29,673 bases of DNA, taken from contig CATNEU010000001.1 in assembly GCA_950097605.1 (NCBI GenBank), positions 1 to 29,673 of the forward strand, in the 5' to 3' direction. Position numbers and translations under genes: made by a program. The notes beneath the pieces are model-generated. The model made no database searches and had not been told where the DNA came from. It was given only the letters and a program-made list of their open reading frames with translations. Numbering within the stretch: position 1 is the first letter of the stretch; every line of letters starts with the position of its first letter. Of this stretch, positions 20,298 through 23,423 are shown one piece after another. This stretch comes from an uncultured Oscillospiraceae bacterium. Its GTDB lineage: Bacteria; Bacillota; Clostridia; Oscillospirales; Ruminococcaceae.

Positions 20298-21206
20298 ATG
20301 GTACCAATTTATAAACCCATTGGGGAAGAGCAGAAATGCCGCATGGTTCCGATTTCATTTCCCGCACAGCACCAGGATTGCCAGCCGGGTCTGGAATACC
20401 GCATGCAGCCCCAGCCCCTCTCCGAAAACCCCGCGGCAAAGGGCAGCGGGAAGCTCTGCGGCAAAGTCGCTGTGATCACCGGCGGCGACAGCGGCATCGG
20501 CCGCGCCGTCGCCTACGCGTTTGCCAGGGAGGGGGCCGACCTCGTGCTCTCCTATCTCTGCGAACACGAGGACGCCCGGAAAACCAAGCGCCATGTGGAA
20601 AGCCTGGGACGGCGCTGCGTGCTGGTCCCGGGCGACCTGAAACAGGCGTCCATGGCAAAGCAGGTAATCGCGAGAACCATCGACGTCTTTGGCAAACTCG
20701 ACGTCCTCATCAACAACCTCGGCGTCCAATTTGTTCAAAACGATATCCGGGACATTACCGAGGAACAGCTCGACCTCACCTTCCGCACCAACCTCTATTC
20801 GTTCTTCTTCATGATTCAGGCGGCGCTGCCCTATCTGAAGCCCGGCAGCAGCATCATCAACACCACCAGCATCACCGCTTACCGCGGCGAACCCGAGCTG
20901 ATGGACTACAGCGCAACCAAAGGCGGAATCATGGCGCTGACGCGCTCCCTCTCCCTTTCGCTTAAAAACAAGGGCATCCGCGTCAACGGAGTTGCGCCCG
21001 GCCCAACCTGGACGCCGCTGATCCCCGCTTCCTACAGCGCCGAACAGGTGCGCACCTTTGGAAGCGACACCTCCCGCGTGCCGATGAACCGCGCCGGACA
21101 GCCGTTCGAGATCGCGTCCAGCTATGTTTTTCTGGCGTCGGACGACGCCAGCTACATGTCAGGGCAGGTGCTGCATCCAAACGGCGGGGAGATCGTCGGC
21201 TCCTGA
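20298..21206 (+). CDS. SDR oxidoreductase (YhdF/YdaD general-stress type)
   Basis: QHQDCQPGLE..M.PQP, TGGDSGIGRA, DYSATKG and NGVAPGPTWTPLIP motifs. Confidence 0.9.
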   Translation: MVPIYKPIGEEQKCRMVPISFPAQHQDCQPGLEYRMQPQPLSENPAAKGSGKLCGKVAVITGGDSGIGRAVAYAFAREGADLVLSYLCEHEDARKTKRHVESLGRRCVLVPGDLKQASMAKQVIARTIDVFGKLDVLINNLGVQFVQNDIRDITEEQLDLTFRTNLYSFFFMIQAALPYLKPGSSIINTTSITAYRGEPELMDYSATKGGIMALTRSLSLSLKNKGIRVNGVAPGPTWTPLIPASYSAEQVRTFGSDTSRVPMNRAGQPFEIASSYVFLASDDASYMSGQVLHPNGGEIVGS

Positions 21207-21227
21207 CTGCCGGTTTTCCCGGGAAAA

Positions 21228-21259
21228 CAAAGGCGGGGGACATCGTTCCCCCGCCTTTG
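21228..21259. terminator. Bidirectional terminator between SDR and rtcB
   Basis: caaaggcggggga-N6-tcccccgcctttg. Confidence 0.8.
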
Positions 21260-21262
21260 CCG

Positions 21263-22321
21263 TTATCCCTTATAGGTGAGCAGCGGCCGCAGCGTTGCAA
21301 TCACACGGGCCAGGCCGTGCTCCTCCAGCGCCCGGATCACCGGCGCAATGTTTTTATAGGCGTCGGGCGCCTCCTCATAGAGCAGCGGCTGTTCCTGACA
21401 GACCACTCGGCTGCCAAGCGCCGTGCGGTACAGCTCCTCCCGGCTGTACCGCTCCCGCAGGCGGCCCCGGCAGGAGGCGCGCGGCCATTTGCGCCCTGCG
21501 CCGTGGGAAAGCGACCAACAGGACGCCTGGGTTTCCCGTGCGGGCTGCACAAGATAGGCCAGGCTGCCGCGCGAGCCCGGTATCACCACCGGGCCCCGGC
21601 GGGCGCTGACCGCCCCTTTGCGGTGCAGAAAAAAGCCGTCCGGCAGCGCTTCTACAAAGTTGTGGCAACTGTCCAGCACGGCGCGCGGCGGCCCGGCAAA
21701 CCCAAGTGCTGCAAGCAGCTTATCCGCAACCGCCAACCGGTTTTTCTCCGCCCAGGATACCGCTTGGTTGTGCACCCGCAGATATGTCTCGATCTGCGCG
21801 GGACCACATAGCCCCTCCGCGCCGGGATACTCCCGCGCAATCCGCTGGCCAAAGTCCCGCGAGCCGCTGTGCATCAGCAGATAAACTTGGTCCCCCTCCA
21901 GGCCCATCTGCCGCACGGCCTGCCCGTCGAGCACCTGGTCGAGCTGCTGGAACTCCGCGAAGTGGTTGCCGCCGCCCAGCGTGCCAAACGCTGCGAGCGG
22001 ACATTCGCCGCCGGGGGACTCCGCCGCGAGCGGGCCCAGCCGCTCGAGCTTCGCGGCCCACCGGTCCTGCTTGCAGCGGCGGCGTCCAACACCGGTGGCA
22101 AACAGCGTCATGCCGCAGCCGGTATCCCCGCCGGTCAGGTGGGGGTAGAGCACGCCCCGCGTCATCAGCGCCATGCCAACAGGCGTCTTGCCCGCGTGCA
22201 GGTCGGGCAGCCCCACGGTGCGCACCGCACCCGGCAGCGCCGCCGCCTGCGCGAGCTGCTCCACGGCGTCCGAAGACATCCAGTTCTTTTCTGTGGTAAT
22301 CAGTGTATACTCTGTATGCAA
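21263..22321 (-). CDS. rtcB: RtcB-family RNA ligase, release-factor-H-coupled (RtcB2-like) subfamily
   Basis: N-terminus TEKNWMSSDAVEQL...LPG..RTVGLPDLHAG. Catalytic motifs GGDTGCG, GGGNHFAE, HSGSR, CHN, HRKGA, PGSRG, SHGAGR and EEAPDAYK. TTG start after AAAGGAG. Confidence 0.88.
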   Translation of the reverse strand: MHTEYTLITTEKNWMSSDAVEQLAQAAALPGAVRTVGLPDLHAGKTPVGMALMTRGVLYPHLTGGDTGCGMTLFATGVGRRRCKQDRWAAKLERLGPLAAESPGGECPLAAFGTLGGGNHFAEFQQLDQVLDGQAVRQMGLEGDQVYLLMHSGSRDFGQRIAREYPGAEGLCGPAQIETYLRVHNQAVSWAEKNRLAVADKLLAALGFAGPPRAVLDSCHNFVEALPDGFFLHRKGAVSARRGPVVIPGSRGSLAYLVQPARETQASCWSLSHGAGRKWPRASCRGRLRERYSREELYRTALGSRVVCQEQPLLYEEAPDAYKNIAPVIRALEEHGLARVIATLRPLLTYKG

Positions 22322-22385
22322 AATACGCTCCTTTGTTGGTTGGAAAGCCCTCTGCGCGGGCAGCAGCCCGGGAAATTCGGCGCAG

Positions 22386-22417
22386 AAAAGCCGCGGCTCG
22401 AAAAAACCGCGGCTTTT
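22386..22417 (-). terminator. Intrinsic terminator in the rtcB leader (putative attenuator)
   Basis: aaaagccgcgg-N10-ccgcggcttttct on the minus strand, between the promoter and the rtcB RBS. Confidence 0.75.
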
Positions 22418-22511
22418 GGTGGTCCTATCTGCATGCAGCAGCGAGGCGGTGCGGCGGCGCAAAGCGCCAGGCACGGCCTGTATCCACCGGGCTTCGGTTG
22501 TCCGGTCCGAT

Positions 22512-22550
22512 CTATAAAATTGTCTTGCCTCTTCTCGTTTCTGTCAACAT
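22512..22550 (-). CDS. Putative leader peptide MLTETRRGKTIL
   Basis: AAAGGAG, then 8 nt, then ATG TTG ACA GAA ACG AGA AGA GGC AAG ACA ATT TTA TAG, directly after the promoter. Too short for the ORF track. Confidence 0.65.
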   Translation of the reverse strand: MLTETRRGKTIL

Positions 22551-22587
22551 ACCGGACACTCCTTTCCATTGATGGGCTGCTTTTTTC

Positions 22588-22616
22588 AGTATACCGGCCG
22601 CGCCGGCTGCTGTCAA
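22588..22616 (-). promoter_or_regulatory. Sigma-A promoter of leader-rtcB
   Basis: TTGACA-17 bp-TATACT. Confidence 0.8.
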
Positions 22617-22627
22617 GCCGGTTTGCC

Positions 22628-22656
22628 TTGCACCGGGGCGCGCCGAGCGCTATAAT
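22628..22656 (+). promoter_or_regulatory. Sigma-A promoter of yjdF
   Basis: TTGCAC-17 bp-TATAAT. Confidence 0.75.
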
Positions 22657-22756
22657 AGAACTCCAGACCGGCATGCAGGCGGCTCCCCGCCCCTGCCGGG
22701 GAGCCGCCTGCCGCAGCCGGTCCGCCGCGCTGCAACGCGCGGCAACCCGCAAACCA

Positions 22757-22844
22757 GCAGAGATCAAAACACGGCCCGGTTGGTAGTCCGGGCGCGGAGA
22801 CGCCTCCGTCAGTAACCTGCCTCCTAAGGTTGTCCGTTCTCTGC
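22757..22844 (+). ncRNA. yjdF (azaaromatic) riboswitch
   Basis: P1 gcagaga/tctctgc encloses AAAACAC-G..CGGTTGGTAGTCCGG...GTCAGTAACCT.CC.CC...GG.TGTCC, the conserved yjdF core, directly 5' of a yjdF gene. Confidence 0.88.
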
Positions 22845-22872
22845 CACAAACCCATTTTTAGGAGGATTTTCT

Positions 22873-23286
22873 ATGGACGTGCAGGCAGAAATCACCGTGT
22901 TTTTCGAGGACCCGTTTTGGGTGGCCGTTTTCAAACGGCACGAAGAGGGAAGGCTTTGCGCCGCAAAGGTCACGTTTGGGCCGGAACCCACCGAGGCCAT
23001 GCTTTACCCCTTTTTTCTGGAACATTTTAAGGAGCTGCGGTTTGGTCCCGCCGCAGACGGAGAGCGCCAGGCTTGCTGCCGCAATCCCAAGCGGCTGCAG
23101 CGGCAGATTCGGCGGCAGCTCGGTGGGAGCGGCGCGGGCACCAAGGCCCAGCAGGCCATCCAGGCGCAGCAGCAGCTTGCAGCGGCGCAGCGCAAGACCG
23201 AACGGCGCGAACGCACCCAAAGCGAAAAGCAGCAGGCTTTCGAGCGGCGCCGTCAAAAACGCAAGGAAAAACACAAAGGGCACTAG
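22873..23286 (+). CDS. yjdF: YjdF (DUF2992) family protein
   Basis: ITVFFEDPFWVAVF, KVTFGPEPT, NPKRLQRQ, GTKAQQA and C-terminal K.KEKHKGH; RBS AGGAGG. Confidence 0.9.
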   Translation: MDVQAEITVFFEDPFWVAVFKRHEEGRLCAAKVTFGPEPTEAMLYPFFLEHFKELRFGPAADGERQACCRNPKRLQRQIRRQLGGSGAGTKAQQAIQAQQQLAAAQRKTERRERTQSEKQQAFERRRQKRKEKHKGH

Positions 23287-23389
23287 CCACGCCCTGCATA
23301 CCGTCCCGAACGCAGGGGAAGCGGGCGGTATGCAAGATGTCCGCAGCCTTATCTCCGCGGGCATCCCGCAATATTGGTTTTTATAGCAG

Positions 23390-23423
23390 CACAGGCCGCG
23401 TTTTCTAGAAAACGCGGCCTGTG
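23390..23423. repeat. 34-bp perfect palindrome, probable terminator between convergent genes
   Basis: cacaggccgcgttttct|agaaaacgcggcctgtg. Confidence 0.7.

Follow-up and report, generated by a model that had tools for sequence, protein, structure and literature searches.

A probable leader-peptide transcription attenuator before a solo rtcB2 RNA ligase gene, a Gram-positive relative of the PA5471.1 attenuator

What switches on an RNA ligase gene of the release-factor-H-coupled type that stands without prfH? The question is raised by rtcB2 of an uncultured Oscillospiraceae bacterium, which we analysed within a window of 29,673 nucleotides (contig CATNEU010000001.1), and our answer is that the region between its promoter and its start codon is probably a ribosome-dependent (leader-peptide) transcription attenuator that gates the gene (Table 1). 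The encoded RtcB matches PF01139 and scores above the cut-offs of both NF007153 (PRK09588; 412 bits against 407) and TIGR03073 (347 bits against 272), with the RtcB catalytic columns invariant in alignment A1. This type of RtcB is rare and patchy, occurring in 2 of 61 relatives' genomes, 8 of 401 of the class and 3 of 401 of the phylum. A convergent SDR gene follows rtcB2, with prfH not downstream, and the organism's own genome (72.6% complete) yielded no prfH and only two full-length release factor genes, both of RF1/RF2 size. Most relatives with the leader do carry prfH; the window leader is unusual in controlling a solo rtcB2. The elements listed by a first-pass annotation of the leader all lie on the minus strand where it had placed them, apart from the rtcB TTG, which is one base away from the implied 22320.

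Table 1. Features of the rtcB2 leader, listed in the direction of transcription
Feature	Position	Strand	Remarks
sigma-70-type promoter	22588..22616	-	TTGACA 22616-22611, 17-nt spacer, TATACT 22593-22588
uORF Shine-Dalgarno AAAGGAG	22559..22565	-	8 nt before ATG
segment 1 (P1 5' strand): SD-AUG spacer UGUCCGGU	22551..22558	-	GG of the SD pairs with CC of the post-stop box
12-codon leader ORF MLTETRRGKTIL + TAG	22512..22550	-	ATG 22550, TAG 22514-22512
purine-rich SD-like tract AGAAGAGG inside the uORF	22528..22535	-	13 nt before the stop
segment 2 (P1 3' strand): ACCGGACA + conserved 'ACAACC' box	22496..22506	-	6-17 nt after the stop
candidate antiterminator strand GAAGCCCGGU	22486..22495	-	would pair with terminator 5' arm + loop, or with GGGCUUUC
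clade-specific structured insert (68 nt)	22418..22485	-	hairpins 22479-22444 and 22438-22429, closed by GGUGG/CCACC
intrinsic terminator (segments 3, 4): AAAAGCCGCGG, loop, CCGCGGCUUUU	22386..22417	-	followed by U-rich CUUUUCU and by CUGCG
post-terminator hairpin CUGCGC...GCGCAG + GGGCUUUC closing the leader domain	22343..22385	-	predicted fold
rtcB2 Shine-Dalgarno AAAGGAG	22328..22334	-	sequence reading
rtcB2, release-factor-H-coupled-type RNA ligase, 352 aa	21263..22321	-	TTG start 22321-22319

The leader is transcribed. Its promoter matches the consensus at 11 of 12 positions and is the top-scoring promoter-like site within 3.5 kb, with a predicted transcription start at ~22581 (minus strand) and a leader of ~260 nt; the promoters of the nearest relatives, L105 and L106, have the same hexamers at the same spacing. 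When Logan contigs from four mouse-gut metatranscriptomes were mapped to 21000-23400, RNA contigs from three of them covered the leader (22342-22553, 22342-22517 and 21959-22537). No RNA contig of the four metatranscriptomes, whose depth of just 2-6x makes this evidence weak, covers 22554-22765, and this gap at the promoter agrees with transcription beginning shortly after the predicted promoter. One RNA contig runs across the terminator into rtcB, pointing to some read-through: either termination is not absolute or the contigs include DNA. Contigs of two independent runs (X8 and X11) both stop exactly at 22342, just upstream of the rtcB2 Shine-Dalgarno sequence (SD), a shared end that may reflect RNA processing, a break between strains or an artefact of assembly. 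Divergent from the rtcB2 promoter, a 137-aa DUF2992 gene (22873-23286, plus strand) follows an azaaromatic (yjdF) riboswitch (Rfam RF01764, 90.4 bits; 22753-22853, plus strand), and a GC-rich inverted repeat (GGCGGCUCCCC...GGGGAGCCGCC, 22675-22711) lies between the two divergent promoters; the back-to-back DUF2992/rtcB2 arrangement is also kept in L105.

The layout of the leader is real and conserved beyond chance. Gathering loci from genome and metagenome scans and from exact-protein look-ups gave 80-odd for comparison, among which L105 and L106 are nearest to the window, with 82% RtcB identity, ~86% leader identity and the same divergent DUF2992 neighbour. Both keep the promoter, the SD, the 12-codon leader ORF (uORF), the helix, the terminator and the second SD, and their uORF, although it differs at 6 of 12 residues, has the same start and stop, length and frame. 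More distant carriers among the Firmicutes (Faecalispora, Enterocloster, Petroclostridium, Formimonas, Acetonema, Sporomusa and several MAGs) repeat the order of promoter, SD, uORF of 10-14 codons (mostly with an ATG TTG start), one or two terminators, SD and rtcB2. Of 23 Firmicutes leaders, 19 contain an SD-led ATG uORF of 9-25 codons, against 2.06 expected and at most 7 in 200 dinucleotide shuffles, and some 20 orthologous leaders have a uORF of 10-14 codons; for the window leader taken singly, 5.5% of dinucleotide shuffles contain a comparable SD-led uORF. In every case a whole number of codons separates the ATG from the conserved GAGGUR motif (15, 18, 21 or 27 nt).

Beyond the uORF, the window terminator is an 11-bp GC hairpin with A/U flanks, and at least one intrinsic terminator lies between uORF and gene in 20 of 22 Firmicutes leaders, its stem covarying widely (GCCGCGG, GCCGUGG, CACGAU, CUGCGGC, GUCGCGGCA and others). 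The post-terminator hairpin is kept in L105 with small compensations. Two tandem terminators (T1, CACGAU/AUCGUG, then T2) stand in L168, L180, L182, L183, L188, L170, L174 and L187, and the T2 loops (GGUUG) of such leaders are complementary to the post-stop CAACC box. The central proposal of the first-pass annotation, a leader-peptide-type transcription attenuator before an RtcB2-type ligase gene, is supported; the annotation had also named conservation among orthologs as a check, which is borne out by the uORF (19/23) and by the terminators with their covarying stems (20/22), but not by the peptide sequence.

The whole window leader folds somewhat better than its shuffles (z -2.6), and the helix that links this fold to the uORF, which we call P1, joins the post-stop ACAACC box and its upstream flank to the 3' end of the uORF's SD, the spacer and the start. 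The complementarity between the SD-AUG spacer and the bases after the leader stop had been noticed in the first reading of the sequence: UGUCCGGU (22558-22551) and ACCGGACA (22506-22499) are complementary at every base, and comparison establishes this pairing as part of a real, covarying helix. P1 reaches -24.6 kcal/mol in the window (p=0.053 against shuffles) and has z<0 against shuffles in 18 of 22 leaders. When cognate pairings were ranked against non-cognate ones, the window came 1st of 21 and the mean rank was 6.0 of 21 (P ~5e-5); within the GC-rich subgroup the mean rank was 1.57 of 7 (P ~6e-4). The spacers are wholly different between leaders, yet each is matched by its own box. The post-stop box, as 'GACAACC', recurs in orthologous leaders, and most of segment 2 falls within the footprint of a ribosome at the uORF stop codon. 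Since P1 targets the uORF's own ribosome-binding site (RBS), it ties the fold to translation.

As regards this window, the model is weakest at the candidate antiterminator strand. Here GAAGCCCGGU would pair with GCCGCGGUUUU, the terminator 5' arm and loop (-14.1 kcal/mol), or after read-through with the alternative partner GGGCUUUC (22350-22343). Across leaders, the pairing of the post-stop segment with the terminator 5' arm (2:3) has z<0 in 20 of 20 (mean -1.45; cognate test P ~0.003); in the window its z of -1.09 is not significant alone, its cognate rank is 5 of 21, and it has to close around the 68-nt insert. That insert is missing from the shorter leaders of other relatives and from most orthologous leaders, and in L105 its inner hairpin GGCGC/GCGCC is replaced by CGUUU/AAACG through compensatory changes. 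In equilibrium folding with ribosome masks the terminator forms at every ribosome position, and because it always wins, such folding reveals no switch. In truncated transcripts of L177, L005, L169, L174 and others, the terminator 5' arm is captured more when a ribosome is placed on codons 1-4; in the window's own truncated transcript the mask changes nothing. Rfam covariance models gave no leader match for the window and 8 relatives, either at the gathering threshold or at E up to 10. Mimicry of the 16S decoding site, suggested by a likeness of the L005 leader to helix 44 (GGUGAA..GUC..UAACAA), was also considered and rejected, as the resemblance failed in other leaders.

Within the uORF, position and base composition are conserved rather than residues. 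Peptides among the relatives read RRGK (window), IKGE, RGSK, RKGT, RRGT, or E-V plus three codons, and they form two subgroups: an 'E-V' group, with E, Q or K before V, then exactly three codons, then the stop, and an 'R/K-G' group made up of the window, L105, L177, L179 and L189. The window encodes R-R-G-K as AGA AGA GGC AAG, in which the first-pass annotation had seen an R-G-K (+X+) arrest motif and a tandem AGA-AGA of possible sensing function. Although the window has the motif, the compared Firmicutes leader peptides do not conserve it, and the tandem codons fare no better: the nearest ortholog, at 82% RtcB identity, has the peptide MLAGKIKGETIL, with K-I-K-G-E and with ATA AAA where the window has AGA AGA. 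AGA-AGA is restricted to the window and L189 (AGA AGA GG); every Arg codon of the five R/K-G-type leaders is AGR, and the E-V group has no Arg. Nowhere in the compared Firmicutes uORFs is a series of codons for a single amino acid conserved. A codon-for-codon alignment of L193, L189 and L179 sets GAG GUG, AGA GGA and AAA GGG at the same positions, and homologous codons swap among E-V, K-V, Q-V, R-G and K-G, yet a purine-rich, SD-like tract persists 9-16 nt before the stop. Different residues thus share one purine-rich, SD-like string, which argues that R-G-K and AGA-AGA are not the conserved features. A positional scan of 22 Firmicutes uORFs places the strongest anti-SD pairing (-7.2 kcal/mol) in 8-mers that begin 15-16 nt before the stop, with energies of ~0 elsewhere, and 37 uORFs from other phyla show a weaker peak (-3.7) at that offset. 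No downstream pairing partner of the tract beyond chance was found in Firmicutes (mean z -0.12; window -0.31), and with z near 0 we rejected the tract as a helix strand there, a role that holds for Proteobacteria. We likewise discarded an overlapping second ORF started from the internal SD-like tract, which appears in L168 only and is not conserved.

From this anatomy we propose that four segments compete: the uORF RBS with its spacer (1), the ACCGGACA-ACC box with its flank (2), and the two terminator arms (3 and 4). A constitutive promoter would supply the ~260-nt leader, on whose strong SD a ribosome would load to translate the 12-codon uORF. In healthy cells, by analogy with PA5471.1 and trpL, the ribosome would quickly reach the stop and, perhaps held there by the SD-like tract AGAAGAGG, would mask segment 2, so that 3:4 could form and transcription would end at ~22386. 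Were no ribosome to load, 1:2 (P1) would form and 3:4 would terminate transcription again. Under stress, a ribosome that is slow or stuck early, owing to a damaged decoding centre, damaged tRNA or inhibitors, would cover segment 1, and the free segment 2 would capture the terminator 5' arm, allowing RNA polymerase to read through and RtcB2 to be made. General ribosome stalling is a plausible cue on the same analogy. This trp-like model, built from the anatomy of the window, coincides with the one published for PA5471.1.

That published system is the closest precedent. PA5471.1 of P. aeruginosa is a 13-codon leader peptide that controls armZ (PA5471) by transcription attenuation, armZ being described as an 'RtcB-like RNA ligase' gene in an operon with prfH (PA5470); full translation of the leader lets the 3:4 terminator form, and stalling, whose reported causes include aminoglycosides, chloramphenicol, suhB or cca mutants, and an amber codon at position 3, abolishes it, as reviews tracing the attenuator to Morita et al. 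2009 set out (PMC3516279, PMC12057347, PMC13041342). PA5471 has been placed in cluster PRK09588 (PMC3516279), the family to which the window RtcB belongs, so the earlier statement that no attenuator had been described for RtcB2-type ligases is wrong: PA5471.1 before armZ-prfH is one. The window leader is a Gram-positive relative of the PA5471.1-type attenuator and not a new kind of regulator. The MexXY literature views the PA5471.1 leader as peculiar to armZ ('unique to MexXY' in one review), and the RtcB2/PrfH literature, as searchable, does not address leaders or the switching-on of the module. The two leaders share an SD-led ORF (13 codons there, 12 here) before a PRK09588 RtcB-family gene and one or more terminators between ORF and gene. 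They would also share a four-segment logic, in which full translation gives termination and stalling gives read-through, and a cue in general translation trouble, both attributed to the window by analogy. They differ in that the window leader has no peptide or RNA sequence similarity to PA5471.1 and lacks both prfH and a MexZ-type function. They differ further in architecture, since the 3' part of the proteobacterial uORF is a helix strand with a covarying partner downstream, whereas the Firmicutes leader lets the uORF's own RBS compete (P1) and leaves the 3' part of the uORF free as an SD-like tract; we regard this use of the RBS as segment 1, together with an SD-like tract positioned before the stop, as an architectural variant.

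Other leaders resemble the window in part. As in trpL of E. coli, the segments would pair as 1:2, 2:3 or 3:4, a ribosome at the leader stop would mask segment 2 and favour the terminator, an early-stalled ribosome would permit the antiterminator, and lack of translation would give super-attenuation; unlike trpL, the rtcB2 leaders have no family-conserved runs of regulatory codons and use the RBS rather than codons as segment 1, and they presumably sense ribosome competence or speed, not one amino acid. The erm, cat and ABC-F leaders (ermC, vmlR, msrD, lmo0919) likewise have a short uORF on which a stalled ribosome remodels the leader of a gene that helps translation, but they depend on specific nascent-peptide or drug arrest motifs, whereas here the peptide is unconserved and the gene encodes an RNA ligase. 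The frameshift site of prfB (RF2) also has an SD-like element inside an ORF at a fixed short distance before a stop, in a gene of the termination and rescue system; the window has no slippery site or frameshift product, and its spacing is 9-16 nt rather than 3 nt.

Outside the Firmicutes, an SD-led uORF precedes rtcB2(-prfH) in 44 of 63 loci, in conserved families, and the Pseudomonas loci L033 and L038 have 13-codon uORFs of the PA5471.1 type. In these loci the uORF 3' part (UUUGCAGGUC and variants) is conserved across different reading frames and pairs with a covarying box (GACCUGCC and variants) ~35-55 nt before rtcB2; L033, L034, L119, L120 and E. coli show this proteobacterial architecture. 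The helix made by the uORF 3' part has a mean z of -1.46 in this outgroup against -0.12 in Firmicutes, and the two architectures therefore differ. A third type of leader (L109, L150, L172) lacks a terminator and forms a three-segment switch that sequesters the SD. In these leaders (L172:1381-1497, L150 and L109) the uORF 3' end UGAGAGAA is nearly identical in sequence to the rtcB2 SD region GGAGAGAA; a lone anti-segment UUCUCUCA between the two is able to pair with either, as a translational switch. Elsewhere, a second, distant RtcB-family gene (31% identity) lies ~1.4 kb upstream of a uORF-controlled rtcB2-prfH in the same genome (L020/L005; G010 contig 6, ~35469-35891 and 37248-38309).

E. 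coli, too, has an SD-led uORF of 15 codons between yafP and rtcB2/ykfJ (L190:1291-1338; L191:640-687). Its peptide is MKNPLSMTLCRPFQD, or MTNPLSMTLCRPFQD in K-12 (NC_000913.3 253239-253286), and it is unannotated even in that strain. The 3' part of this uORF (GCAGAC..CCAGG) pairs with a downstream CCUGG..GUCUGC that is followed by a U-rich tail, and K-12 carries an extra REP-like insertion further down the rtcB2 leader. A megablast search of the L119 leader against E. coli gave no match; the coding sequence matched in a more distant search mode. Searches for the E. coli uORF peptide gave no hit, nor did searches for ykfJ/yafP in a small-protein ribosome-profiling preprint; ykfJ has been reported to be inducible by 4-azaleucine.

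Several other readings of the leader have to be weighed against ribosome-dependent attenuation. That the uORF is a chance ORF beside an ordinary or leaky terminator, with no regulation at all, might be suggested by its mere 12 codons and by the RNA contigs that run through the terminator, but is strongly disfavoured by its recurrence in ~20 divergent leaders where ~2 are expected, by the cognate specificity of P1 and by the positioning of the SD-like tract. A peptide-specific mechanism would have R-G-K (+X+) bring about drug-dependent arrest, as in erm and ABC-F leaders, or the tandem rare AGA codons sense the supply or cleavage of tRNA-Arg. The AGA AGA GGC AAG of the window, the AGA AGA GG of L189 and the exclusive use of AGR for Arg in the five R/K-G-type leaders would suit it; the K-I-K-G-E of the nearest ortholog, with ATA AAA in place of AGA AGA, the exchange of E-V, K-V, Q-V, R-G and K-G at homologous codons around a constant purine-rich string, and a downstream gene that encodes a ligase and not a drug-resistance protein make it improbable. 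We consider it more improbable still that the switch is worked by RNA or protein, with the leader, and especially the 68-nt insert, binding a ligand, a damaged RNA fragment or a protein while the uORF just loads ribosomes for mRNA stability. The canonical rtcBA operon, which senses RNA fragments through RtcR, provides a precedent, and both the conserved structure of the insert, with compensatory changes between the window and L105, and the stability of the leader fold relative to shuffles agree with it; yet the leader matches no Rfam family, most orthologous leaders lack the insert while keeping the uORF, P1 and terminator, the uORF frame survives indels in multiples of 3, and P1 targets the uORF's own RBS.

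A further reading takes the SD-like tract as a direct lesion sensor: a ribosome cleaved by a colicin-E3-type rRNase (at 16S A1493, with loss of the anti-SD tail) would not be held at the tract, or would fail to terminate, and the fold would change. RtcB2-PrfH repairs exactly this colicin-E3-type cleavage of 16S rRNA at A1493 (PMC9304027, PMC9223846), and the tract, which is without an RNA partner in Firmicutes, is the most conserved feature of the uORF across the two peptide subgroups and, weakly, across phyla. We nevertheless think this reading unlikely: it is purely inferential, PA5471.1 responds to many unrelated translation insults, and the equivalent proteobacterial tract forms one strand of a helix and covaries with its partner, so that the shared offset may have different causes. 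A broader proposition, which we regard as doubtful, joins two claims, that SD-led uORFs are a near-universal, cross-phylum control of RtcB2(-PrfH), with PA5471.1 as one instance, and that the SD-like tract of Firmicutes makes the anti-SD tail, cut off by colicin-E3-type toxins, a part of the sensor. If it were true, the operon would read out the specific 16S lesion that its product repairs.

Ribosome-dependent attenuation thus remains the reading that we consider probable. The leader annotates an otherwise blank 300-bp region of this genome, and the window, together with the 80-odd compared loci, links the literature on RtcB2-PrfH repair with that on MexXY and PA5471.1. As short translated leaders precede rtcB2 in Firmicutes, in Proteobacteria and in E. 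coli, the repair module seems to be generally induced by failing translation, and we predict that the solo RtcB2 of this mouse-gut Clostridia MAG would be a translation-stress gene.
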